Part shown: piece after piece, positions 42,066 through 61,641 of the stretch
How the letters are laid out: every line of letters starts with the position of its first letter
Position numbering within the stretch: position 1 is the stretch's first letter
Assembly (NCBI GenBank): GCA_905331295.1
Contig: CAJNYD010000017.1
Location: 124,001-188,000 of the forward strand
Source: Rotaria socialis
Lineage: Eukaryota
Length of the DNA: 64,000 nt
Direction: 5' to 3'
Notes under the pieces: model-generated
What the model saw: only the letters and a program-made list of their open reading frames with translations
Databases searched by the model: none
What the model was told of the DNA's origin: nothing
Program-made: the position numbers and the translations under genes

Positions 42066-42989
42066 ATGAACTATTTACGTATTATTCAAAAAACCATTCT
42101 CACGATATCATCTATAAGACATTCTTCGACTATAACTATTCCAGCGTTAATAGATTCTTATCCAATCGAAGCAACAGTATTCGAACCAAAATCGCCATCG
42201 TCTGATTCGATATGTGTTGTGATTTCTGAAGCAACAGGCTCTCGTCGTCAATTTTATTTTCCATTTGCACAATACTTAAGTGAACAACATAATCTACATG
42301 TTGTGACATACGACTATCGTGGAATACATGAACGAAAACCAACGCAATGGAATCTTGTTGAACATTGGGCTCGACGTGACTGTGCTGGAGTACTATCATA
42401 TTGTCTTGACAAATATAATGAAGTTGTTCATGTAGGTCATAGCCTTGGCGGAAATATGCATGCACTTCTACCATCGCCTATAAATGAAAAAATTTCACGA
42501 ACAATTCTTGTATCAGCAACAAATTCTTATTTAATGTATCACAAATGGAATTTAGCTTTTCTTCTAACATGTTCATCACTTTACATTCTTCGCGAACCAC
42601 TTTGTAGATTTTATGGATATTATCCAGCACGTACTGTATTTCGTGCGGGTGTTGATATGCCATCAAATATAATTCGTCAATGGGCACGATGGGCATTAAA
42701 TCGTCAATGTTTTGTCGATGAAAATGGTCAAGTATTTACAGATGGCTTTCAATCACTCAAATGTCCTATTCTAGCTGTAAATTTTGCTGACGATGAATTT
42801 TACACACGTCAGGCATTCGACAAATTTACTGGACAATTTCATCAATCATCAAATATTCAAACTTGGCATTTACCAAAAGGTGGTCATTTTAGTTTTTTTA
42901 AAGAGAAGCAATCGTTAGAACTTTGGAACGAGATAGTTCGATTTATAAAATATGCCGATACAAAACTTCCTACTATTATAAATAAATAA
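42066..42989 (+). CDS. Intronless alpha/beta-fold hydrolase of bacterial predicted-hydrolase type
   Basis: ATGSRRQFYFPFAQYL, TYDYRG, nucleophile elbow GHSLGG, DMPSNIIRQWARW, candidate acid (DDE) and His (GGHF) residues; 307 aa with no introns. Confidence 0.88.
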   Translation: MNYLRIIQKTILTISSIRHSSTITIPALIDSYPIEATVFEPKSPSSDSICVVISEATGSRRQFYFPFAQYLSEQHNLHVVTYDYRGIHERKPTQWNLVEHWARRDCAGVLSYCLDKYNEVVHVGHSLGGNMHALLPSPINEKISRTILVSATNSYLMYHKWNLAFLLTCSSLYILREPLCRFYGYYPARTVFRAGVDMPSNIIRQWARWALNRQCFVDENGQVFTDGFQSLKCPILAVNFADDEFYTRQAFDKFTGQFHQSSNIQTWHLPKGGHFSFFKEKQSLELWNEIVRFIKYADTKLPTIINK

Positions 42990-43753: not shown

Positions 43754-45699
43754 GGTTATGTGTTACTTTTTTCTTAACAATGGATCGAAATAATTTGACT
43801 ATATGTATATAAATATAATAGCTCTAGGAAAGAGAAAAATGAGACGAACGCGATTTGTCATTATCAGACTGAAGGGTCAGTGTACAGTGAATTCATTGTC
43901 ACAAATGAAAGAAAGAAGAAAAAAGAAAAAAAAGAAACGAAGGACAGGCATTCAATCTGACCTCAGATTAAGTCCATGTTACAAGAATGAGAAAAGAAGA
44001 AACACATGATTGGTTTTCGTTTGATTAGTGAATGTAAAAGAGAACATTGATTAATTCATTTCAAGTTTTCCTACGATCGTATTCTTTTTTTCTCCTATCT
44101 AGAAAAATAATTTATGTTACACGTCAAACGGAATATTAGCAAAGATGATTGAATCTCGTAGATAGATTATCAAAACAAAGCAAACTTTAACGATCTGTTT
44201 TATCGCTCAAGAAGAAATGATTACAATAAATGAATTGATGTTATGTTGAGTGAGTATTGAAGAACAATAACTCCTCTTGAATCTTTTGTAATATAATCAA
44301 TGGCGTATAGTATGACAACTGATCAATTCAAGACACTGCAAGCTTTTTTTCTAATCGTTGTATTCATCTGATTTTACTTCTAGTAATCATAGAGAGAGAT
44401 TTATGTTTTTTAAGTTACAATACTTTAGCTAAAGAAATTTTCCAGTAGTTATGACTTCGTACTAGATATTTAACTATGTACAATCAGCTTGTCTTGATCA
44501 TTCTGTAACTAATGAAAATGAACTTATCGAGGCATACATGAGCTGAGATGAAACTAGACATTTAAGATATTAATGAATTTTCTTTGAAGATAATGGGCAC
44601 GTTGTTTCTAATGATTAGACTTGGCTTATTTGATCTAATCAAGGAAACACTTCTTGTTTAATTATATGTCATTGCCGTAAAATTAAGGACATCCTCGATA
44701 CAGCGATTGTATGGAAAAAAAATAATTTGAAAATGTTTAAATGATCACTATCAGATACTGTTGGGATTTTCCCAGTAGAATCGATTGTTTGTTTTGATTC
44801 TCTTTATGTTTGAAATAAAATGAATGGTTTCCTTACAACTAACTAGATTTCACTTTTAAAGTGTTTTATCATCGAAAAGTGGGAATATAATTTAGGAATT
44901 GGTCTAGGAGGTTGCAAATTGTAGCGCATGAAATTCATCAACAACTGCAGGAATTGTATTGTGGCCCTTTATTCGTCGTTCAATCAATAGTAATAAATAT
45001 AACTGGATCTTGCAGACTTCAATATTAAATCGAATGATTTTGGATACCAAGCCGTCTTAAAATCGATGAGTTAACTGCTGTATCTGGTACAGTCAGTCAA
45101 CGTCTACACGGGAACATCATATGAGATACAGCTCCCCTCTAAAGCTCAATTGTTTTTGAATTAGTTGACAGTAATATTTTATATTAGGCAGCTTCCGTAA
45201 AACCATTTGAATGGTAAGAATTCAAGTGTGTTCAGTTAATTCATCAGTTTTTAAACAGCAGCTAGTCAATTACGGTTTATTTTTGCAAACACTTTACTGT
45301 TTGCCGGTTTTTTTCCGAAATCTTGAAGATTTTTAGTGGTGGTAGCCGTGGGAAATAAGTATGTTGCTTTGTTTGTTTAATTTAATTTAAAATCGATGGC
45401 ATTATTAGTAAAGTACATATGGAGATTCTCGAGGGTGTGGGTGTCAATAATCATAATCAACTATGTTTAATTCTTACGCTTTTTAGAAGAACTCTATGAT
45501 CATGTTTATGTGCTTGATAAGAACTGATTTTTTTTCTCCCATGGTCAAATATTTACATCTTTTCAGTAACTTTGCCAGATAAATGAATTTATTTCACATA
45601 TGTATTCTTTATGAGTTTTAGATTGTATGACTGCAGTTGTGACAGGTATTTAAGCGTTTAATTAAATCAAGCAAATAACTGATTATAAATATATTTTAG

Positions 45700-46610
45700 T
45701 TTATTCCAGTGAGTAGCACTTGTCATGATGATCCAACAAAATATCATTCAGGACCAGCTACCTCGATGATTGTTCCTAACAATCAGATACATTTCAAGGC
45801 ATGTAGCTTTTATCTCTTAAATGTTAGGTTGATCTGGTTTAGATTTTCTTGTAAACAACATTGTTAAAATTGTATGATGAAATACGACCGAATTTAATAT
45901 TGACAACTGGTGGAACGGGAATCAGTCCAGATGATATTACATCAGAAGTGTATGTGTGCGTGTACTTTTTTATTTAATAGACTCACTTTTGCTTTAGGTG
46001 ACGAATTAAGAGTTACCACAAAGAAAATTCGTGGTCTAATACAGACAATGATTGCGAAGCATTAACAATTATTCACAGGGCTATGCTTTCGAGATGAAAT
46101 CGACGTGCTAAAGCAGTTATGACATACTAATATGTTAATCAAATGTTAGATAGTTGATTAGTTGTCTACAATGTGAATAGTGGACGTTCATATGTTGGAG
46201 GAGAAAATATTGAATTATTTTGTTCGACTTCAAACTCTTTTAATGCAGACTAATACACTACTTGTGGAAGATCAATGTGTAGTGATTAATATCAGTACTA
46301 AATTACCCGATAGGAGAAGAGTATATGTATTATTTCTGAATGTTCATTGAATCAAGATGTTAGGTTCTGCATAGAGATATTGACGATGATGTTCAAATGA
46401 GTGAATGAGTTTTACAAAAGAATGTTCCTTCGGGACTTGCTCAGCTAGGTTTACTTGCTACAGTTGGACTACAAATAATACATGCTTATGAGAAACCACG
46501 TCTAGTCATTCTTTCAACTGATAGTAATAAAATCATTCTTATGAGTGCATTAAAAAATTTAAATATATAACATACTATTTACTCTCAATTTGGCATTATA
46601 TATAATACGT
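45700..46610 (+). pseudogene. GPHN: Gephyrin (MogA + MoeA domains) pseudogene
   Basis: G-domain NLILTTGGTGISPDDITSE and AMLSR; E-domain QLGLLATVGL...KPRLVILST-DSN; in-frame stops, frameshifts and internal deletions; intron remnants kept. Confidence 0.8.
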
Positions 46611-46996
46611 AACTTTCATTCGTATTCCGTATCTTTCCAAACAGCTATTTCGAAAATTTATTCTAGTGAAACATCGGTTATTTAAACATTACAATCTCAT
46701 CTTCCAATAGCGCGCATTCTTGTGCGGGTCAGTGTGTCTGTGGATTGTATTTTTTATTGATAGCCACTCCCTCAAGCCACATATTTTGTTGTAATGTCGT
46801 TCTTCTTTTTCTGTTGATAATAAAACGACATGTCATGAGAAAATCACATCATCGTTTATTTTTGTGAACGAGACATTGATACTATTAATTTCGTACATCA
46901 GTGGATATCTGCAGTTGAGTTGTTTGTCACAGCATTATCTTACATTACGAATTATTCAACAGAATTACTAACAAATTTTCTTGATTTTTAAAGAAA

Positions 46997-47103
46997 GTGC
47001 TGCTCTGGCAGGTCGATGTTGCCATCAACCCGCATGATTTCGTCATCGCAACATGTATTTGATCAGCGAAGATCTTTTACCTCTTGGTAAGTTTATAATA
47101 AGC
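46997..47103 (-). ncRNA. Spliced-leader (SL) RNA gene, copy 1 (variant leader)
   Basis: GCTTATTATAAACTTACCAAGAG|GTAAAA followed by the conserved TTGCGATGACGAAA block and the 3' hairpin GCGGGTTGATG-GCAA-CATCGACCTGC. Confidence 0.8.
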
Positions 47104-47239
47104 AATTTAACATCGTTGGTCTGTAGGACACGATATTCTTCTCGTTCTGACACATCACTCGCTTACATTCTTCTTTGTTCTGTACGGAAAGAGTAGAGAC
47201 AAAAATAATTTCGTGCTCTGAACCTCGACGAATAAAGTT
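47104..47239. promoter_or_regulatory. Divergent spacer between SL copies 1 and 2 with conserved upstream motifs
   Basis: TCGTGYYCT at about -29/-30 and ACGA at about -12/-13 upstream of each leader; the same motifs and spacing occur upstream of copies 3 and 5. Confidence 0.6.
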
Positions 47240-47344
47240 GCTTATTACAACTTACCAAGAGGTAAATGGCCTTTACTGATGAAAAACAGGTTGCGATGAC
47301 GAAATTGAGCGGGTTGATGGCAACATCGACCTGCCAGAGCAACA
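47240..47344 (+). ncRNA. Spliced-leader (SL) RNA gene, copy 2
   Basis: GCTTATTACAACTTACCAAGAG matches the bdelloid SL exon as I recall it (GGCTTATTACAACTTACCAAGAG). It is followed directly by a GT donor, with a TTACC/GGTAA stem over the donor, a 3' GNRA hairpin and a T-run; ~105 nt in total. Confidence 0.88.
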
Positions 47345-47723
47345 TTTTTCAATAAATAAAATTCAAATGCACCATCGGTAGATTGTACGAATCTATGCTT
47401 AATAACGTGTATTCAAATACAATGTTATAGCAGTCTTCAGTAATATTAATGTAATAACTAAACAACTACTGCAGAATTAAAACGAAATATAGGCTGTTTA
47501 TGCTATCTTTCACAATTAGAACAATCTTACTATGCATACTCTCAAATTCATATCAATCACTTTTCTTTGAGTAGCACTCGCAATACTGTTTAGTTTTATC
47601 GCTCAATTCTGAGCAGTCAGATGTTTTTTGAAACAACCTATGATTGAAAAATGCAGAACCAGCACGGCAGCTTTCAAACTTCACTTGAGAATCACTGAAT
47701 ATTGTCATTTTATTTATTAAAAA

Positions 47724-47829
47724 GTGTTGCTCTGGCAGATCATTGTTTCCAACAATCCGCACGATTTCGTCATCGCAACATGTATGCGATCAATGAAGAT
47801 CTTTTACCTCTTGGTAAGTTGTAATAAGC
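47724..47829 (-). ncRNA. Spliced-leader (SL) RNA gene, copy 3
   Basis: Same 22-nt leader plus GTAAAA; 3' hairpin GCGGATTGTTG-GAAA-CAATGATCTGC. Confidence 0.85.
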
Positions 47830-47871
47830 AATTGTCTTCGTGGAGATCCAGGGCACGACACCCCACTTGTN

Positions 47872-47942
47872 TACTGATGAAAAACAGGTTGCGATGACGA
47901 AATTGAGCGGGTTGATGGCAACATCGACCTGCCAGAGCAACA
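47872..47942 (+). ncRNA. SL RNA gene copy 4, 3' part only (5' end lost at the N gap)
   Basis: Identical to 47274-47344 and begins immediately after the N at 47871. Confidence 0.6.
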
Positions 47943-48321
47943 TTTTTCAATAAATAAAATTCAAATGCACCATCAGTAGATTGTACGAATCTGTGCTTAA
48001 TAACGTGTATTCAAATACAATGTTATAGCAGTCTTCAGTAATATTAATGTAATAACTAAACAACTACTGCAGAATTAAAACGAAATATAGGTTGTCTATG
48101 CTATCTTTCACAATTAGAACAATCTTACTATGCATACTCTCAAATTCATATCAATCACTTTTCTTTGAGTAGCACTCTCAATACTTTTTAGTTTTATCGC
48201 TCAATTCTGAGCAGTCAGATGTTTTTTGAAACAACCTATGATTGAAAAATGCAGAACCAGCACGGCACTTTTCAAACTTCCCTTCAGAAACACTGGATAT
48301 TGTCACTTTATTTATTAAAAA

Positions 48322-48427
48322 GTGTTGCTCTGGCAGATCATTGTTTCCAACAATCCGCAGAATTTCGTCATCGCAACATGTATGCGATCAATGAAGATCT
48401 TTTACCTCTTGGTAAGTTGTAATAAGC
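48322..48427 (-). ncRNA. Spliced-leader (SL) RNA gene, copy 5
   Basis: Same 22-nt leader plus GT donor; AATTCTG immediately before the 3' GAAA hairpin. Confidence 0.85.
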
Positions 48428-49564
48428 AATTGTCTTCGTGGAGATCCAGGGCACGACACCCCACTTGTCTTTACACTTTTCATCAACGAAGCCGTCCGAT
48501 CAATGATTTCTCAAGTTCAATAGAATTGTTAAAGATGGCAGTAATGTCGTCGACTTAATAAGGTCGTCTGGAATAAAGCCACACAGGGATGAATCGCAGA
48601 GCTTGAATTTTTGAAGTCGAACCTATGGAAGATAAAAGTAATATACGTTGCCCAAATTTAATAAAATAATTCGAAGAAGATTTACGAAAAAAGGAACTAA
48701 TGAAAAAACTAAAATTTGATGATAGCATTGAAAATCATCTAATTGATTCAAATCAAGACCGTGAGAATGATAAACTGACCAAAATGGTAAATGTCATATA
48801 GTTCAGTCTCTTCTATCTTAAATGACACCCAATTATCAAGCAAAAATCTCATCTTAGATTTATTTCTAAAAGTGAAGGTATGAATGATAATATAAAGAGT
48901 ACTGGTGTTTGAATTATGAAATAAAACTTCACCAATAAGAGAATATTTCTAATGAATCAACAAACGAACCATCTGTAACTTTCGACTTCGTATAAAATGA
49001 TCAAGATGAAATTTCATTTAGAATTAAATTAATTGGAGTACAAATTTTGTGTATGTTAAGTTTCGCCTTAGGAAACGTCTTCATAATAGTCAATCGTCTT
49101 GGAAACAAAAAAACTATAGAACTTTTTTATTAGACGTGTTTTAGTTTTATTAATGTGCAGGTTGATGATAACATCGACCTATCAGAGTAACAGCTAATAA
49201 GTGGAATATATTTATTCAAGAACATACCGGTTGATATATATCCTGTTTGGAAAGAATTACTTTCCGAAACTGAGATATCATAATGCGATGAAACCAGTAA
49301 ATGGATAAAAATATATGACTTTTTACAATGGAAAAAAGAGTCGTTTCATGATTATATGTAGGAACTTCTCGTCATTTTAAGAGGAATTTTATGTAAATAT
49401 CATATCCCCTGATCGGTTGAAAGATACGTGTATCTTCAAACAAGTAGTTTTCAATTGGTAGACATAATCAATACAATAAGAATCGTATTCATTATTCTAT
49501 GTGTTGTTAAATCCATGAATAATGTGAATCCGAAAAGGCTATGTTTAAAATAGTATTTTTTTTA

Positions 49565-52180
49565 TTTGACGAACTTAATCAAGAATCAATTATTGATGAT
49601 TATGACGATGATGAATTAAATATAGGTCGTTTGAATTCGGAATATTTTCTTGGTGATTTTAAATCTTCAAATGACCAACGTAAATTGCAAACGAAACAAA
49701 AATGGGTTGATCATATGATTGAAAGTGCAAAATTAGATGAATATGAACGTCAACATGAAAGTGACAAACGTTTTATTTTGACGTGACACCAACACTTGAT
49801 AAGCAATGGAATGCATTAAGCACAGCAATGGGTGTTAAAGAAAAAATTTCAAGATACGTTAAAGAAACTGCTGATGCTTATAATAAACTTGTTGATTGAT
49901 TAAAATTTGAAGTTCAAACAACAGTTGATCGTTGGATTTTCTATCTACAACTGAATATTTATTATAGCATTGTTTTCACTGTAGATACATCGAAATATTC
50001 GTACAAATGAGCGACTACCGAACCTGGGTAAAATTTATTAATCATTAAGGTAAACATACACACAAACATTTTATCATTGTAGGTTAGTCAAACAGTCGAT
50101 TTAATTAGAGTTCATTTAACAAACTATGAACTATTCGTGCAAAACAAAGGCCATTTAAAAGCGCAAATTGTTATGTTTGACAACACCGAAAGAAGCGCAA
50201 CATTGCAACAACAATTGAAGGGCCTCAATAAAAAGATCGATGACGTTTTAAAAGACATAGTCACGGGGGTCAAATTGTTGCAGCAATTGGAGATCGAAAG
50301 TAAGACTTTCTCCAATGATTGGTTTATTGTATAATTAAAATTTGTTTGTCTTTATTTATAGACAACACGAACCAAGAAGCAACAAGTTGATGCTTTGAAA
50401 GACTGCCGCCAATTTGTTTCTCATATCCGTTTGCCACATTTGTTATTTGTAGTCCTAAAAACATAACTAAAAGATATACCGGTGGTTAAACAAGAAAGTA
50501 AATCTAAAACACGCTGCAATTCCTCTAGATAAACGTAAATCAAAAGCTCATGTTGACACAGCAAATAAAGTCAACCCATTTGATCTTGATGTCAATCCTT
50601 GCAGACATGGTGTACTGGACAAACGATGTAGTTATGCAAAATGTGGTCAACCACTTAAATCTCCATCACGATGCGTTGAAAAAGTAATTTTCTGTTGTGT
50701 TTCTTCATTTCTTAATGCATTTTTATTTCATAGAGAAAACGTACACTATTAAAAGAATTAAATTCTCTGTTGATACGCAATACACTTATTGATAATTGCC
50801 TCGATGAAAATGATGCAACATTGGCACGATGAAAAATTAATGCAATATTTTATTATCGAATGAACGTGTTTTTTTTTCTTATAATCTCAAGCTATGTGAT
50901 CCAACATCAAAATATCCTACGGAACTTTTCAATGCCTATTTAATCGACACAGTGTGTATATAAAGTTTCTACAATTAATGTGCTTCTATAGAAATTATTC
51001 AATCAATCTTTAATAAAGCTGTTCCATATACGTATATTACTGATTTTATTTTCTAGCTCCATCTGATCTTCACAAACGTCAATCTCGTTTATCTGATGAT
51101 CGAAGATACCTTAAGTGCTATTTGAACACCGATAAATGATAAACGATTACCACCAATAGCAACATCAGTTCTAAATGTAACTTACCGCGTGTTTCTCTCT
51201 TTTCAAAAACAAGCATTATATTTTTCGGATTGTTTAAGAATTATTTTCATCTTCTATTCGATTGTTATGAATCAACAACATCAAATCGAACATGATTAAA
51301 TCAAATCGGTAAAAATCTTCTTCATATTTTACAATTAGTTAATAACGAACAAACAAAAACGAATACATTCAATCGATTACAACAATCTCATACGACATTA
51401 AATGAACAGATTGAAAATGAAACGTTTTCTCAAGTAGATTCATCATTCGTATGTTATATTTCATATTTCTTTTAATTTAATCTCTCATTAAACTTTTTAT
51501 TTTATAATTAGTCTTTTCTTAAAATTAATCGTTCATCTTGATCCAACATCATATTTTATTCATCCGATAGCAGCAACGCCATCAAGAACATTGTTTATTC
51601 AAGCATTCAATCATTCATGTGTTTTTGTTGAAATATGTTTTTCCAACATTCCTCTTTATTCTTGTGATAGACTTGTCTCAAATTACTTTGTTCATGTCGG
51701 CAAGCATTATTTTCTATTTAACTAGTAAAACAAGAAACATGATTTTTGTCATTGTAAATTTTGTTATTGAAATAAATTTTCGTTCCATAATGGATATTAA
51801 AAAAAAGTCGTCTCCATGCATTGCGTATCCCATGAAAATGAAAACATCTCGATATGTAATACTCTATTCATCGAAACAGATTGATAATAATGAATTTCTT
51901 GTCATAAATAAAGACATTAATTTGTAAGTAACAGAAGAAACATCATTCATTACTTACTGACTAGCTCATCGTACTAGAAGAAAACCATTCCATTGAAATG
52001 AAAGATTTAGAACAGTTTTTGAGAATTTCCATCAATACGCTATGATAAGGAGAAAATTGTTGGAAGTCGGCGTAACTCTATAAGGCATGAATGATTGAAT
52101 GCTTGAATAAACAATGTTATTGATGGCGTTGTTATCGGACGAATAAAATCCAATGTTGGATAAAGATGATGAAGTAATTT
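49565..52180 (+). pseudogene. NOP14: Fragmented, rearranged NOP14 pseudogene
   Basis: Middle segment TKQKWVDHMIESAKLDEYERQ...LDKQW...ADAYNKLVD*LKFE (49565-49930); N-terminal VNPFDLDVN...RKRTLLKE...LIDNCLDEND (50530-50830); LIVHLDPTSYFIHPIAATP (51522-51618); an inverted copy LYPTLDFIRPITTP (52084-52180). Stops and frameshifts throughout. Confidence 0.75.
50007..50425 (+). pseudogene. Spliced coiled-coil gene fragment inserted among the NOP14 pieces
   Basis: ATG exon MSDYRTW, GT-AG intron, open exon ...LQQQLKGLNKKIDDVLKDIV...; the third exon ends in a stop or frameshift; no family recognised. Confidence 0.35.
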
Positions 52181-52418
52181 AAAACACGGAATCTAATCAG
52201 CTCGCATATACGACAAAAGATACAATGTTCAGTAGTAGATTTCGATTTCCAACTGCTTTATTCATCGATACAATATTAATATTCATTCATAATGCAACAC
52301 AAGTTCATACCGTTATTTCAGTAGTTGTTTTTGACAATAACTCAGCTTTCAATGCACATATTTTACTTTGTACTTGACACACAACACATTTTTATTCAGA
52401 GAAAATAACAGAACAAAA

Positions 52419-54331
52419 TTAAAGCGACAACGAAGGAAAATAGTCATAAACATCTTTCGGATAGACCATGGATTGTTCAGCAATTAATTGTTTTATTTTA
52501 GCACAATTCCGTCGTGTTTCACCTCTTGTAAAGTTGTTTGTCACTATTTTCAAATTAACATATTTAACTTTTAATTCAGTTAAACGAGGTAGATGGGTTT
52601 TTGTATCATTGAGAAAATGTTCAATATAATGAATGTGTGCACCAGTGATGTTAAGTGAAACAAGATACGGGTATTTAACAATTGAGCGCCAGTCGTTTTC
52701 ATAAAGATGACGCTCGCGAGATCTCCAAAAAGGTGGTTGAATATTCTTAATACTTAAATCTTTAAGAAATGGAAAAGCTTGAGTAAGTCGAATGAAAAAT
52801 TCATATTTGAATGCGTCTTGATCCCATAACATCAAATGAGTAACAGAAGTAAATACAATGTTTGGAATATTATTTCCGATCTCTTCGAGACGATGAAATT
52901 TAACTGGGAGTGAAAAAACTCGACAAATCGTTTCCCAATCGTCGAAGTAATCCACCATACAAGCCACTTGTCGATATTGTATATTTGTAAAAGTGCTTAG
53001 AATATCTAAGTTAGATATACGTACATCTGGATCAACAGGGCCATGCTTAGAAGCGATATAAAATGTGAATGTATGAAGTCGTGGCATATGAATAAGAATT
53101 TCATTATCAAGATGAGTGCCAGCGATGAACGTGGAACCAGCCGATATATATATATATATATATAAATTTAATTCTTTGAGATGCGACATTCGACGAAGAA
53201 GAGGTAAAACCACACTGTCATAATCTTCAGTACTCTTATAACATGTTAATGAGAAACATTCTAAATTAGGTAGAGGATCCTGAAAAATTCAAAAAGCAAA
53301 TATTAATAAATTCAGTTTGTATTAGTTGCGCTCAGAAATAAATTATTACGTATTATACATTTACCGAAATTCTACTTTTAAATTTTAATAATGCAGAAAT
53401 CTCATTGTATCTTGCAGTTTTATTTAACTTTGTTTTATCTTCGATATTAAACATTACTAGTTAAAACAGCATAACAACACGAAACATAAACTCACCATGT
53501 TGTACGATGTTGAAGTTTTATAGATATAATTAACCTGAAGGATGAGTGAAGTTAATTGTTTGAGACGACCATCAAGTAAAGCAAGACAATCATCAAAATT
53601 ATTTGTATTAATACATAATTCAGTAAGAATCGAAGAGGAAAAAGTCATTGGTGGTAAACAGTATAACGATAAAGGTGGATAATCGTTGACAGATGATGGC
53701 AGAATACTCAAATGGTTTAGATTTTTAAAGAAATCCAAGATCGTTACATAAACATTGTTCGTATCCTTTGTGAGTACTTGTTCAATATAGTTTTCATTAC
53801 TGATAAGAATAAGATCCGTAATTTGTTGTTGATCAATATGTTGAAAGAGAGAATTATCTAAATGACATTCATATATAATTTAATCTGAACAGCTAAATAT
53901 CTTTTTTATGCTAATCTTTTAAGTTCATTAGACATGAATATCTCACCCGTGAAATAGCGTGGAACGATTTCTCTGTTGAAATTGAAAATTTTAAGTTCAG
54001 TGAGATTAGGATAGATGCCAGCGCCAAGAATACATTCAATGGAAGCAGATTCAACACTGAGTGATTTGACATTTTGTTGAATTCTTGGTAAGACATCAAT
54101 ACGAAATCGATTTAGCATGGAGTCAGAAATTGAACAAATCTCATCGGCTGATTGAGATATGGAAACGAAATTAAGGATGTTACTGAAGATTTGCTCTTGT
54201 GCTATAATATCAAGTCGTTGATTGTTGATACCAAATAAAGAATAAAGAACATCAATATTGTCGAGTTTCTTTAAAATGAGAAATAATATTTCATTTGGAA
54301 GATCAAGAAGATGAACAATACGTTGACTCAT
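52419..54331 (-). CDS. F-box domain protein with LRR-like C-terminus (bdelloid-type family), three exons
   Basis: N-terminal LLDLPNEILFLILKKLDNIDVLYSL; repeats such as LPRLTELKV and FPFLKDLSI; exons 54331-53948, ~53858-53496 and ~53280-52419 are in frame. Confidence 0.85.
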
Positions 54332-55023
54332 CTTTAAATGTGATCATGTCGTTCTCATCAAGACAACATACATATATATAGTTATCTATTGAGTCTTTGT
54401 TCATATAGATCTGAAACAGACTAGACGAATTGGACGTGAATTAACGAATATGATTGGTGTGTCGCTGTGCTAGAAAAGTATCGAAAAGAAAAAATTGCAG
54501 CTGGGAGTGTTCATTTTACGCCTCGCTATTTTGGTATTTATCTATGAGCATTTTCTGTCAACGAAATCAAACGAGTAAATTATTTGCATAAATGTAGTTT
54601 CTTTTATATGTAGATCAATTATCGTAAAGTTCTTTGTAAAGAATTGAGACCACATCGAATAAAATTTATTTAATGATTAAAAATTTGTGACTACAGCTTG
54701 ATTGCGGACATTTTTTTCCTCCAATTAAGAAAAAAAAGTCCGCAATCAACAAGACGCGTAATAGAATTAATGGCTGTTCTTGAGACAAGAAAAATCAAAT
54801 CATGCATCATGTTTGAAATGTCGAAAGTTAAAACAAATGTGTTCGATGTAATATAAGAGGCTTTGTAGAGTACGATGATCGATAAGGATGAACAAAAGCA
54901 ATTGAATCGAAATGGGAACGTAGAGTACAAGGAGCAATAACATCGTCGATAGTTCCTTTCGGTATTTTATCGTCATCATTGGGTTGTCTTAATTCTTTGG
55001 CAACCAAAACAACGATCTTCTTC

Positions 55024-55338
55024 TGGGGTTACTCTCGGTTCGTCCCCTCCGCACTAATTGACTCTCAATTCGTCCCCCCAATTCTTTGAATATGACAAAT
55101 CAACATGAATTTTAGATTTTAGAATAAATGGTAATAGTATAATTTTTTTTGTTTTTTGCTTTTAAAGTATATAGTATTGAAATAAATAAGAGGTATATAG
55201 CTTTTTTTATTATTTTATTTTAATTTTTCATATAATTCTTGTATTTTTAATCTAAAATTCATGTTGATTTGTCATATTCAAAGAATTGGGGGGACGAATT
55301 GAGTTAATTGGTAATGGGGACCAACCGAGAGGATCCCA
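55024..55338. mobile_element. MITE/fold-back element with long inverted repeats
   Basis: ctcaattcgtccccccaattctttgaatatgacaaatcaacatgaattttaga is inverted at ~55251-55303; outer arms ctctcggttcgtcccc / ggggaccaaccgagag; AT-rich centre. Confidence 0.8.
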
Positions 55339-57059
55339 TTGATATTCTATGCTGTATGCCATGCGGGCAGATTTGTTTTTTCAGATAACATGCAAGCGGA
55401 TAGACTAATAGTGATAAATAATGTGAATCAAAACTTTCAAACAATGGATACCATTTTATTTAAAGAAGGTTGAGATGATGATCGAGCATATAGAACTGAT
55501 TCAAAACAAGCTGATCAAAAATGATCAATTGATTATTAAAAAGAGTTATTCACAAGTTATTGCAATAATTCAGAATATCTTTGTTTGTTTTCTCACATTT
55601 GCATGAAAAGGAAACGTTAACTTTTTTTTCTTCCTCTTAGTCCTGGTCATCTCGCTCTCAATGTTATAAATCATCGGCTTTATCATTTCTTTGGAAAGCG
55701 TTGATAAAAAATCTAGCAAACCATTTTTGAGAGAGATCAAAACTATGCCTAAATCTAAAACGAAATTATATTTTACTTCTAATAGGTTTTTCTTCCCACC
55801 CTCTTTTATACAATCGATTATATACGTCCAATTACAAACGACTAAATGTATGCGAGATGTTGGTACAGATTATAACGAGACTAACACCCACAAACACATT
55901 AGAATGCTTATCAACATGATCAGTAAACTAGTAGTGGCTTCTTAAACACATATTTTAATACCACTGGTTGGTATTAAGCTAATAGCTTTTGTGATTAGCT
56001 ACATAATATTTTCTTATTAAGAAAAATCTCAGCTATAAATAATTTTGTTATTTTTATTCTAAAAAATAATTACTGAAAATTTCAATAGTGAGAATAGCCT
56101 ATCGATGTTTTAATATGAGTGTGAATACTTGAACTTTACTTTGTCCAATGATGAAGTTACCTAGAATAAAAACGTATTCATCGTTGCCAACTTTGCGCGT
56201 GCTCTATTTTTAAATATAATTTTTTTCTTCTTCTTTTCTTCCAATCAAATGTCCTATGCCATTTGCAAGAATCCATATTTTGTCTTTCACATGGCTGGAT
56301 CATTTATAGACATTTTCAATGTCAATTTTTTCTTGTTTTATTTCTATAAATTCTCTATTTTCTTATCAATCGAGATGTTGAATTCAACGTCAACTGCACT
56401 TGTCATTTAACATTCAAACAAAAGACCAAGGACATCGAACCTCAAATATTATCCGACGTACTTGCGGATACTTCACCAGAAGATTATGATAGTTATTATG
56501 ACAAGCTGAGAGTACGTAAAACAGGATTTGTTATTTTTATTCATATTATTTTTCTTTCAAATCTTTCTAGAAAGACAAATACTGTTATCAATTAGTTGAA
56601 TAATTGTATATTGAAAATTCCTATGTTCGACTTGAAATGTCAATGAAAAAGATACTCTTCAAAATATTTCTATTCATTTTGAATTGATATAAGATAACGG
56701 TGCTCGATCACGCGTATAAAGCATAGACAGTAAATTGAATAAACGTAAGATAGTTAAAATAATTTTATTTCCTTGATTAAAATAACTGAATTTATCACAT
56801 TCGAAAATTTATAAAATTCGATGTGCACGACTTCAATCAAAATAACTAATTGCTATTTAAAAAAAAATAACAACTGCTTGAATTCGTTCGTTTATACGTG
56901 TTTTGCATAGTTTGTAGGCATACAGCTATTCAAAAAAAAACGTCATAAACATATCCTTGCTTTATGCAAAAAATATACTTGACCATGAACGTGTCCTTAA
57001 GAAATAAATTTTGTTGTTTTTTTTTCTGTCTATTTATGTTCGCATCGATATTTCTTTAG

Positions 57060-58473
57060 ATGAATGTATTTTCTGGCTATTCGTCAAATATATTAACAAT
57101 TAAAAATTTTCCATTAATATTCAATGATAACGATCGACGAGAATTTTTAGAACATTTCGGTGTTGTTCGTGTATGTTGTTTAACTCGATTTAAAAACATA
57201 TCAAATATTATTGTTGCTGATTTTGGTTCAAGTTCACAAGCTTCGCAAGCGCTGAGACGTTTACATCAACTGGAAATACTTGCTCGTCGATTAGTTGTAG
57301 AAAATTGTCCATTAGAATTAGCTCAGTTAGCTTTCAATAGTGCTCCACAATCTTCGGATGATGACGAAGAGAGTGCTTCATTGCATGGTATTTCACCAGG
57401 TATAAATCAAATTCGTTATTCATTACCATCGGAAAGACTTACATACGCTTATCCACCTATTAATGATATAATTTTAATGAATATAAACAGTGCACTATTA
57501 TCAGTGCCATCGTTTTACACTCAGGTTCTTCATCTTATGAATAAAATGTCTCTCCCATGTCCAGTAGTGGCTGGTAAAATATTTTTAAAAAAATTATTTT
57601 CCTAGCTAATAAATTGATTTAATAGATTCAACGCAACCTGAACGAATTTTATCAAAAATTAGTGTTGCATGTCAAACAGATGAAATGACTAAGATCGAAG
57701 TAATCAATATGGATACAGATGAAGATGAAAGTGAAATTGATGATGGCGAAGAAGAACAACGCGTCAAACGACACCATCGATACATTTTACGAACACCAAT
57801 TCATCAAGGAACTGTTCCAACAATACGAACAAACCTGAATGTTAATACTGAGAAAATCAAAAAGGCACCAATCCAACTAAAATTACCTCCAATGTTAAAT
57901 TCATCTCGAGTATGTTATTTTACATAGGAAATTCTTCATAGAATTCTAAATAAAAAAAAATCTCTAATTTAGATAGAAGTTAATAATTCAATACCAATGG
58001 ATATTCCTATGCAAGGCTTTGGTCGATTAGAAGCCATTCAATCAACCATTACAAATATTAGTATTGTAAATCCAGATAAAAATCAACTTCAACCTCTCCG
58101 ATTAATTCCACTTGAAGAAATACGAAAGCATCGTTTGAGTGAAAATCAATTGCGTCTAATTGATAATGGTCGTTTATATAGAAATTATGAACGTGGTCAA
58201 ACATCACAACGTCTCTATATAAAAAATCTTGAAGTCAAACATGTTGATGAACGTCTATTACATGCAATATATGATCGATATAAACAGGATTCTTCTGAAA
58301 TTGAGATAATTCTTATGCGTGAAGGTAAAATGAAAGGTCAAGCATTTGTAACATTTCCTAATGAAGCTATGGCTTTACAAGCATTGAATGATACAAATGG
58401 TTTTATTTTACATGAAAAACCAATGATTGTACAATTTGCTCGAACAGCAAAACCAAAAGATATTGTCGTCTAG
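57060..58473 (+). CDS. RNPC3: U11/U12 snRNP 65K protein (RNPC3), minor spliceosome, three exons
   Basis: RRM1 (ALRRLHQLEILARRLVVE); signature YAYPPINDIILMNINSALLSVPSFYTQVLHLMNKMSLP; RRM2 RLYIKNL...LMREGKMKGQAFVTFPNE...TNGFILHEKPMIVQFAR. Confidence 0.92.
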
Positions 58474-58609
58474 GAAAATATGTGCCTTTTTTTGTTGTGA
58501 AGTTTTTTTTAAATATTAGGTCAGAAAATTTTGAAAATGTTTTTTTTATTGTTATTATCGTTGTGTTCTTTTATTTTAACGAATATTAAACGTATTTTGC
58601 AGACAAAAT

Positions 58610-59128
58610 ATGATACGTTCTAGTTGGATAAATGGTTTGCTTGGTGGTCTTCTAATATCATCATGTTGTGTAATTCAATTATTTCTAAATCTATTTGGTA
58701 TTGGTTGTGCTGGACTGAATACTCTATTATTCCCTTATCGACCATTGTTTATTTCATTGACAGTTATTTCGTTAACTTATTCTTTTTTTCATTATCGTCC
58801 GTCGAAATTACATTTCACTATTGTAATTATCTTTACATTGATTCTTTCATTTTCACCTGAACTCCTTCAAATGTATAATAATCAATTTGCAAGAAATGAT
58901 TTTGCCGATAATGAAATCTTTATTACACATTGGAAAATAATAGGAATGCATTGTGAAGCTTGTCGTGCAGCTGTTATACAATCATTAAGAAAACTTCACG
59001 GAATTCTCAGTGTTAACGTTGATCTTGAAACTGGTCATGCTGAATTAACCGCAAGTCATTTTATACAGACAGACACTGTTATTCAAGCTGTACAATCAGC
59101 TGGTTTTCAAGCTAATAAACTTGTTTGA
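58610..59128 (+). CDS. Intronless MerT-like membrane domain fused to a heavy-metal-associated (HMA/MerP-like) domain
   Basis: TM1 with a vicinal Cys pair (SSCC), LFPYRPLF after TM2, further TM helices, then GMHCEAC and an HMA-type tail (VNVDLETG...AVQSAGF). Confidence 0.82.
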   Translation: MIRSSWINGLLGGLLISSCCVIQLFLNLFGIGCAGLNTLLFPYRPLFISLTVISLTYSFFHYRPSKLHFTIVIIFTLILSFSPELLQMYNNQFARNDFADNEIFITHWKIIGMHCEACRAAVIQSLRKLHGILSVNVDLETGHAELTASHFIQTDTVIQAVQSAGFQANKLV

Positions 59129-61641
59129 AGCCATAAGAAAAGTATATTATGTGTAAAAACAAAACAAAAAAACATTCTATTAGAAATAAAATGAGGGATT
59201 TTCGTGCAATAAGTAAATACATGATAATGTGGCAAGCATTTCAATTTATATGTTTTATATATCAACATATGAAATATATATTAGTTGTGATAAGAACTAC
59301 TCTGATGAATGTATAATATCCTGAATGTGTAGTTTTATTATATAAGAGAATTTTCGGGACTTCCATTCATAAAGAAAGGATGTAGAAAAGAGAAAAAAAA
59401 CTCTTCAGTATAGATGCACAGACCTTTATCTTAAGTGATTTCTTTTAGTAAGCAACCAAATAAAGAAGTCTAGCGATAATAATATTATCAAAATTCGCCA
59501 TTGCAAACACGACAATTTCGCTTGTGAATAATAATCATATAGAAAAACTATAGAACAGTAAGTAAAATCATTCGAACGTAATGCACAAGATGAATACGGC
59601 TTTCTATACAAATAGTAACATACTCCAAGGCGAGAGATAAAATATAGTAGATATATATATGCTACATGGTAATCAGCACACTGACAACTAGTGACCTCTT
59701 TCATTGGCACAGAACGAACCCCGCAGTCAATAGTTATTCGTCAAAAATTGAATTGTATATTTTGGATACCGTATAAGTATTGTGTCAATCTACAGCGTAT
59801 GATTAATATGTATGTGTGCAGCCCACGCCTACCAATTCACCTTTTGTTTTTTCATGCGTGCAATCACTGGCAATGAAAACACTCTATTTTTCTCTCGTAA
59901 GTGTCGATCTTTGTTAAGATAATTTGTAAAAAGTAAAATACTACTCGATTGGAAACTAGTGACACGTGTGGTTAGGTATGATTGCATTGTAGAATCTATT
60001 ACATTTGAGAAAATTGACTTTCGTTTTTTTACTACGACAGCTGTTGCTTTCAATAAAAAAATTTATTTCTTGATTGATTTGTCTTGTGCTTTTGATGTTA
60101 GTCAGATGCTTGCTAATATGTTTCAGATTATGTTATACTTGTTATTTTCTTCCCTTCTGTTATTTTGAAGTATTTCAATATATATTACTGATTGGGTGAT
60201 ATCGACGTACCGCTCTGCGACTATTGGCTTTATTCTATCTATTCTCAGCGATGACATAAGCTGTTCCACGCTGAGTCTTATTTTTACAAAAAATGACAAA
60301 AATACACCTGGTATCAGCACATTTTATGTCACCACTTCTGTTGTTGCTTATACTCAGCAGCCATCTTATTCTTAACAAGCAATCCACATGTCTGGCTCTT
60401 CGTTTTACGGATGGTAAGCAGACAGATTTATTTATATTTGACCTTAATGTAAAACTCTTTTTCTTCAATATTTGTTTTTCTATAATACATTCGCGATAAT
60501 GACGAGATTTATCACATTCGTTTTTTTTCTCTCATTCAGTTACCCGTTTGGTTATTTACTCTTTCAAAAGAATCATAAAATAAGTATGATACTATTCATC
60601 AACATTACTCTAACTTTAGAGAATGGAATGACTTGCCATTAACGATCGGAATATGTCCTCTTTCAGTGAGAAATTATTTGCTTGTTTGCTGCCCGTCCCC
60701 CGTCCCCCCTATTCAAAGTTGCAAATGCCAAAAATCATTCAAAGAAAAAGAAAAAGAAAAGCGAATAGAAGGTGCGAGGAAAAAATCATAGAAACAGCGT
60801 TAATAGAACTTGTCAACACGTTCTCTGATAAAATCGTAATCGAGTAGGTGGTTGGAAGCTATGAATAATTTGAGTGGCAAAAAAAATGGCATGCACACAT
60901 GCAAAACTGACTTCAATGATTGACATATCCTTCAATTCTTCTCGATTAGATTCCATACAGACATGTACGGAAGAAGAAAGCAAGAAAAAGTAATGCTGCG
61001 TTGTATAAATCAATAGATAAATATACGGATTAAAAGCTAAAACAACACTGCATAAGGCGCAATGCTTGAAGCCAAATACTCTTGGATCATCACATTTAAT
61101 TCAATTTATTCCTTTTTTCTGTTGTCCGATGATGTCATCGTTGATCAAAGAATAAATCGAATCTCTTCGTTGTTCTCTATGGTAGCATCATCATCATCAT
61201 CATCATCGTTCGATGAATAGTATCCTCTTAAAATGAGAGTTAGGAAATCAAGCAGCGTTTTCTTTTTGCTTTCTATGAATGACTAAAGTATCTTCTATTT
61301 TTTTCTTCTTTGCTTGTTTTCTTTTCTCTGCGTTGAATAGAAATGCATGGGCAATTTTTTTCTTCGTCTGTGAACGTTCTCTACGCTTTTCAATACAAAA
61401 AACAGAGAATGAAAAAGCTATGAGAAGGAAAAAACAGCATTTCTTATTCGAATAGAGTTCGAACAAAACAAGAACTCTATAACACTACCGACACACATTT
61501 ATTCACACACTGGTAATGACGATCGGGTGTTCTGTATGCGTGTGAATCGCGGCACACAGGCACGCAACGTTTATGGTCAGAGCAATAACTACTGTAAATC
61601 GAAACATTTGTATGAAAATACAAAAATCAAAATAAGAGAAA

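Follow-up and report, generated by a model that had tools for sequence, protein, structure and literature searches.

A candidate spliced-leader-resolved operon linking RNPC3 and a probably foreign MerT-like/HMA gene in the bdelloid rotifer Rotaria socialis

Genes and features of the locus

The window analysed here is the whole stretch of 64,000 nucleotides from Rotaria socialis (GenBank assembly GCA_905331295.1, contig CAJNYD010000017.1, positions 124,001 to 188,000 of the forward strand), and all positions refer to it. A remnant of BCAS2, the gene RNPC3 and an intronless MerT-like/HMA gene follow each other on the forward strand, with the features listed below (SL, spliced leader; X1, X2, X3 and X5, sequencing runs described in the next section).

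56241–56247, + strand: CCAATCA motif, a candidate promoter element, 134 nt before the first cistron
56375–57059, + strand: decayed BCAS2/SPF27 remnant, truncated and transcribed (blastn, alignment, RNA contigs)
57058–57059, + strand: RNPC3 trans-splice acceptor, with SL abutting the ATG (57060)
57060–58473, + strand: RNPC3 (RBM40, U11/U12-65K) gene, 432 aa (RNA joints, open spliced frame, PDB match)
57574–57625 and 57910–57972, + strand: RNPC3 introns (both joints in X1 and X2, intron 2 in X3 and X5)
58474–58609, + strand: U-rich intercistronic spacer of 136 nt, from the RNPC3 stop to the MerT/HMA ATG
58517–58524, + strand: conserved spacer motif, TAGGTCAG in the window and TAGATTAG in other loci
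58585–58590, + strand: ATTAAA, starting 16 nt before the acceptor AG
58595–58602, + strand: MerT/HMA trans-splice acceptor, with SL joined at 58603
58610–59128, + strand: intronless MerT-like + HMA gene, 172 aa (Pfam, homologs, model, RNA contigs)
59185–59212, + strand: AATAAA and poly(A) site ending the unit (X1 poly(A) loose end behind 59212)

The identification of the upstream gene as RNPC3 (RBM40), given as RNPC3 in the preliminary description of this DNA, holds: among PDB sequences, the last exon matches RBM40 best (E = 2.8e-27). This exon also shares 99% identity with a protein named as R. socialis. The N-terminal RRM gives a weak match (E = 0.02), and exon 1 searched alone against the PDB gives none. 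The RNPC3 stop codon (TAG, 58471–58473) and the ATG at 58610 leave a same-strand gap of exactly 136 nt, as had been claimed. The U-richness of this spacer is equally well founded, as T makes up 67 of the 136 positions (49%), a content reached by only 0.7% of 6388 sampled 136-nt windows. The acceptor TTTTGCAG is indeed found at 58595–58602, ending 7 nt before the ATG, and occurs just twice in the whole window with both strands counted; both the T content and this acceptor stand out against chance. ATTAAA is located at 58585 as described, and is a possible poly(A) signal for RNPC3 or part of a branch point. The reported absence of AATAAA from the spacer is correct but has no value as evidence: AATAAA is also missing from 73% of the 6388 sampled windows and from 88% of 2000 shuffles of the spacer, so its absence is the norm and is uninformative.

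The MerT/HMA gene is a single ORF in the window and in all nine bdelloid loci described below, and the RNA contigs are collinear with it. Its HMA domain scores 45.2 bits in Pfam, above the cut-off, while the membrane part scores 27.9 bits against MerT (PF02411), for which the cut-off is 32.9; in sequence this part resembles MerT but is by that cut-off no member of PF02411. The CC pair, C33 and the CxxC motif are invariant in 47 homologs. The predicted structure shows helices at the N terminus and, for HMA, a ferredoxin-like fold; its membrane part is of low confidence and had no match in a fold search, leaving the HMA fold as the supported portion. The product is predicted to be a metal binder or transporter of the Cu/Hg type.

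The BCAS2 remnant matches exon 1 of BCAS2 at another bdelloid locus (L009; blastn E = 5e-9), and its decay is evident from a stop at codon 12 and from frameshifting indels between species. RNA contigs over it extend to 57046 in X1 and 57060 in X2, and an AG directly precedes its ATG. Contig offsets suggest a putative intron at 56512–56570 and, for X2, a putative SL at 56375. The remnant is likely to be the first cistron of the unit. The preliminary description had proposed a two-gene unit beginning with RNPC3; the pairing of the two genes stands, and the start has to be moved one cistron further upstream, to this transcribed, decayed BCAS2. CCAATCA precedes the first gene in four of the six loci with upstream sequence (at −134 in the window, −129 in L004, −316 in L005 and −138 in L008) and is absent upstream of the first gene in L007 and L009. 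With a chance expectation of ∼0.025 per 400 nt, and as a motif noticed after the fact, it is a weak hint of a promoter. Alignment of the upstream regions of the first cistrons among loci gave nothing beyond chance except between L007 and L009.

In gene models of R. sordida and R. magnacalcarata, a similar BCAS2 remnant is joined to RNPC3; the public models concerned (P0089, P0116, P0122 and P0104) include BCAS2-remnant/RNPC3 fusions of 476 and 561 aa. One A. steineri model joins MerT/HMA to a duplicated RNPC3 tail. These fused models are likely to be annotation artefacts of tight spacing.

RNA evidence for trans-splicing and for a bridging transcript

The RNA evidence comes from contigs of four of the five runs listed for this DNA. 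X1 is 99% or more alike to the window; X2, from a different study, is 90–99% alike and represents a close relative. X3 and X5 contribute contigs that span pieces of RNPC3 only, and cover neither the spacer nor the MerT/HMA ORF. None of the runs is recorded as RNA; X1 and X2 were judged to be RNA from their spliced introns, SL and poly(A), and in particular because both RNPC3 introns are missing at their GT–AG ends. Loose ends of contigs were identified as SL with the rotifer SL consensus given in Table 1 of PMC3795323.

SL loose ends precede 57058 in both X1 (20 nt) and X2 (11 nt). The SL join that had been predicted at 58603 was also found, as an SL loose end before 58601; it occurs in one of the two covering runs, that of the related species (X2), and none is listed for the near-identical X1. 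As the leader itself ends in AG, the joins are placed at 57060 and 58603. The 13 visible letters of the X2 leader (its last 13) are identical on RNPC3 and MerT/HMA, and these letters contain no distinct downstream leader; RNPC3 might in turn be a downstream cistron. SL by itself does not identify an operon, since more than half of bdelloid transcripts are trans-spliced according to PMC1925144.

An X1 contig covering 58070–59212 runs from the last exon of RNPC3 through the spacer and the MerT/HMA ORF to poly(A) with 0 differences from the window. A contig is not a single molecule, so the bicistronic molecule is inferred from this bridging contig. The poly(A) of X1 begins 22 nt past AATAAA and the genome behind 59212 has no run of A; an X2 contig ends at 59206. 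X2 is discontinuous in the spacer, where its RNPC3 contig ends at 58510 and a lone 33-nt piece lies at 58526–58557. The X2 contig depths are 117.8 for MerT/HMA and 11.6 for RNPC3, values that cannot rank the genes.

Two further candidates were set aside. An X2 contig has 11 extra letters at 61481; these were rejected as SL, as the site has no AG. The entries P0092 and P0053, both from 2731-nt contigs, were dropped as a second bicistronic RNA: P0092 seemingly retains intron 1, and because intron 1 is apparently read through, its contig may be DNA.

Conservation across bdelloid loci

Nine of 80 metagenome loci (L001–L009) are of the bdelloid type, with 64–83% identity. RNPC3 lies directly upstream of MerT/HMA in six of them (L001–L006, which represent five distinct loci as L005 and L006 are near-identical), across spacers of 116–151 nt. 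With the window included, all seven spacers have an AG 7–11 nt before the MerT/HMA ATG and a TAGATTAG-like motif 89–112 nt before it, and none contains CCAAT or ATTGG (0/7). ATTAAA is found at the same offset in four of the seven (the window, L001, L002 and L003); L005 and L006 instead have AATAAA 26 nt before the AG, and L004 has neither signal. In five of five comparisons, spacer alignments scored 24.5–61, compared with 0.5–18.5 for the 136 nt behind the MerT/HMA stop and 5–11 for shuffles. By these scores, conservation is much stronger in the spacer than in the DNA that follows the MerT/HMA stop. In A. vaga the tags of RNPC3 and MerT/HMA are consecutive (I4U23_008863 and I4U23_008864), and among the RNPC3 and MerT accessions of A. 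steineri, A. ricciae, R. sordida and R. sp. Silwood1, 12 more selected pairs are at most 20 numbers apart. By these sequence records, the gene order and short spacing are kept in both Rotaria and Adineta.

L004 keeps the whole block, with 141 nt between BCAS2 and RNPC3 and 116 nt between RNPC3 and MerT/HMA; its BCAS2 splice model has four introns and is probably imperfect. L003 has a decayed BCAS2 and L005 has none. At L007 and L009 there is no RNPC3, and MerT/HMA follows an intact BCAS2 at 121 and 124 nt, respectively. A relaxed splice search gave clean BCAS2 models for these two loci, of 241 and 238 aa with six introns; the Pfam BCAS2 matches of their exons are each below the cut-off. A remnant of RNPC3 was sought in the L007 and L009 spacers and none was found. 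Flanking zinc-finger and Na/H-exchanger genes are common to L004, L007 and L009. L007, L008 and L009 together with A. vaga 024750 form a second paralog clade (bootstrap 100). Bdelloid genomes have undergone duplication, and we infer a reciprocal loss after it, with BCAS2 decaying in one copy of the block and RNPC3 being lost from the other; the alternative is that RNPC3 was inserted into one block. L008 alone among the nine has, over the 466 nt before MerT/HMA, no gene that can be recognised. Since it has no upstream neighbour and has CCAAT motifs of its own, a MerT/HMA copy can lead a transcription unit, which counts against a strict dependence of the gene on its neighbour.

The Na/H-exchanger gene is convergent and lies right behind MerT/HMA in L004 (10844–12343) and L009 (3146–4816); no such gene is seen at the corresponding position of the window.

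Origin of the MerT-like/HMA gene

Named homologs at 50–81% identity are from bdelloids only. Beyond bdelloids, a profile search reached Mucoromycota and chytrid fungi, alga-like metagenome genes, Gocevia (Amoebozoa), Flectonema (a diplonemid) and Chromera; names were looked up for ten of the distant proteins. No non-bdelloid animal is among the named full-length hits. The eukaryotic homologs are 28–46% identical over partial alignments, compared with only 25–27% for the bacterial forms in which MerT and HMA are fused (Gimesia, Nitrosomonas and Planctomycetota MAGs), and bacteria branch outside the eukaryote group in the tree. Both observations speak against a transfer from a bacterium to a rotifer. 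The protein shares with bacterial MerT transporters that carry a MerP/CopZ-type HMA domain the Cys–Cys pair in the first helix and the CxxC HMA domain, and differs from them in its low identity and sub-cut-off Pfam score; the homologs from microbial eukaryotes are closer and share a longer motif. In a tree of 40 sequences the bdelloids group as a single clade (bootstrap 97) within the eukaryotic family, with Flectonema as sister on a long branch; in a FastTree analysis of 47 sequences they are sister to all other eukaryotes sampled. As the trees give different sister groups, we name no donor.

Bdelloids are known for many foreign genes, and a foreign gene had been claimed here. The distribution of the gene is non-metazoan, in agreement with that claim, and its nearest relatives are fungi, algae and protists rather than bacteria. 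On the sequences compared, the gene is probably foreign and would derive from a microbial eukaryote. Descent from an old eukaryotic gene lost in other animals would account for the occurrence of the family in fungi, which are opisthokonts, as well as in amoebozoans and algae, and for the disagreement of the trees about the bdelloid sister group. Such descent is a minority reading that deserves to be kept in mind; against it, the gene is intronless amid intron-rich neighbours, the bdelloid proteins are apart from the fungal ones and never group with them in either tree, and the full-length hits that carry a name include no other animals.

The MerT-like module occurs twice in many proteins of 400–630 aa (P0145–P0286, L011 and L012), one of them from Chromera. 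They appear to represent a little-described eukaryotic family of putative metal-binding proteins with a doubled MerT-like module.

A likely operon and its alternatives

The decayed BCAS2, RNPC3 and MerT/HMA are likely to form one SL-resolved unit driven by one upstream promoter, to which we assign a probability of about 0.7. Co-transcription as an operon is likely because both RNAs bear SL in the close relative and the two genes stay paired in different genera; more than SL alone, what carries the case is that the spacing recurs behind two different genes, that the spacer is conserved and that a contig bridges it. Co-transcription followed by release through SL had been proposed earlier. The SL join, the bridging X1 contig and the conserved spacing support this, and the single promoter and precursor would follow from them by extrapolation. 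One promoter near 56.2 kb would drive all three cistrons, which would lie head to tail in one precursor molecule with MerT/HMA last. SL addition at the acceptors before RNPC3 and MerT/HMA would cut this precursor into capped mRNAs. The 3' end of RNPC3 would most likely fall at or near the downstream acceptor, with ATTAAA 16 nt before the AG; alternatively, the RNPC3 mRNA may extend to 59212. The three-gene block would be old, and both duplicated copies would have kept MerT/HMA ∼120–150 nt behind a housekeeping gene.

Closely packed genes with independent promoters would produce much of the same picture. MerT/HMA would have its promoter in the spacer or in the last exon of RNPC3, and a short outron would be replaced by SL; the bridging contig would then be an overlap of the RNPC3 3'UTR with the outron, an explanation that we consider unlikely, as we do the independent promoters themselves. 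SL is common on bdelloid mRNAs according to PMC1925144, the X2 contigs are interrupted in the spacer, MerT/HMA stands without an upstream neighbour at L008, and the conserved TAGATTAG motif could be a promoter element. The space for such an arrangement is small, as ∼130 nt would have to hold a 3'UTR, a promoter and an outron in a sequence that is 49% T and has no CCAAT. The sister block has the spacing of ∼120 nt too, with another gene, BCAS2, in front of MerT/HMA, and transcribed RNA reaches the acceptor of RNPC3 itself as well. Co-transcription might also be combined with an internal promoter from which a large share of the MerT/HMA mRNA comes, for instance during metal stress. This is compatible with all of the data shown and would explain why a metal-handling gene was kept in both blocks while its neighbours were lost reciprocally; as there is no direct sign of an internal start, we give it little credence.

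A cis intron from GTCAGA (58520) to the AG at 58602, which had been offered as an alternative reading, would make the transcript a fused or read-through RNPC3 3'UTR with no role for trans-splicing. The GT is present in the window, within the conserved spacer motif (58517–58524), and five of the six other loci have GTAGAT nearby. The donor does not survive comparison, as all six other loci have ATTAGA or ATTAGT at the aligned place; X1 is unspliced across the spacer, X2 bears SL at the same AG, and no joint across the spacer is among the RNA joints listed. Cis-splicing is thus highly improbable. Returning to a single SL-resolved unit, a wider proposition can be put forward tentatively, at somewhat less than even odds: that bdelloids have SL-resolved operons, that docking behind trans-spliced housekeeping genes is a general way of switching on foreign genes, that the block predates the genome duplication and was split reciprocally, and that its dead first cistron is still transcribed as a carrier of the promoter.

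Comparison with known systems

The closest precedent is RFC140-flp of Hydra (Dana et al., 2012; PMC3273482), where an intronless gene acquired horizontally likewise follows a housekeeping gene that is trans-spliced, and the spacer between them is T-rich and has an SL acceptor; the arrangement was proposed there as a means of instant expression of a foreign gene. The Hydra case comprises two genes with a 417-nt gap and was proven with reporters and acceptor mutations (PMC3273482). The rotifer unit comes from another phylum, has three cistrons, a gap of ∼130 nt, conservation across genera and reciprocal loss, and rests on sequence and RNA contigs. It is also like the single-SL operons of Ciona, Oikopleura and chaetognaths in having the same leader end on both cistrons, housekeeping genes and short gaps (as covered in PMC7986045 and PMC12460157). 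For chaetognath operons a gap of under 250 bp served as the criterion in the passages available from these sources (PMC7986045, PMC12460157); the rotifer gap, set beside those of Ciona, Oikopleura and chaetognaths, is 116–151 nt measured from stop to ATG. The 3' end proposed for RNPC3 at the acceptor resembles Ciona operons with no intercistronic region. Nematode SL2-type operons share the U-rich intercistronic region of ∼100 nt (PMC7986045; the U-rich element as cited in PMC3273482), and the rotifer unit is unlike them in having the same 13 visible leader letters on RNPC3 and MerT/HMA.

Operons were unreported in rotifers as of a 2021 survey, in the sections of it consulted (PMC7986045). Another paper does name rotifers, loosely, among lineages that have trans-splicing and operonic transcription, with no data in the passages concerned (PMC12460157). 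We found no literature on bdelloid operons, which subscription papers and the supplements of genome papers could mention. Polycistronic bdelloid elements are reportedly described in a paper on retroelements. The locus thus appears to hold an RNA-supported candidate operon in a phylum where operons are unreported. It supplies precisely placed acceptors, a spacer and a series of natural deletions, and makes two questions testable: whether rotifers have operons, and whether trans-splicing allows a foreign gene to be expressed without a promoter of its own. It also shows the possible break-up of an operon after genome duplication and would explain public gene models in which pseudogene exons are fused to RNPC3.

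Other features of the window

A cluster of SL RNA genes lies at 46995–48427, ∼10 kb upstream of the unit.

∼47240, + strand; 47829, − strand; 48427, − strand: SL RNA gene copies with the leader
∼47104, − strand: SL RNA copy with a leader variant
after the N at 47871: leaderless partial SL RNA copy, at a possible assembly join

In every whole copy GT comes after the leader, and folding is better than that of shuffled sequences (z of −3.5 to −4.9). An Rfam scan of 44–64 kb gave no family above the cut-off and missed these genes. The stretch 44000–56300 is ∼10 kb longer than in L004 and L005 (∼13 kb from the zinc-finger gene to RNPC3, compared with 2–4 kb), so the SL RNA cluster and the F-box-like ORFs may be a lineage-specific insertion. 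A long inverted repeat at 55023–55339 has a sub-threshold match to MIR7533 on both strands and is likely to be a MITE or a foldback element. A CorA-like Mg2+ transporter (27358–29337) and an intronless alpha/beta hydrolase (42066–42989) are further candidate foreign genes.
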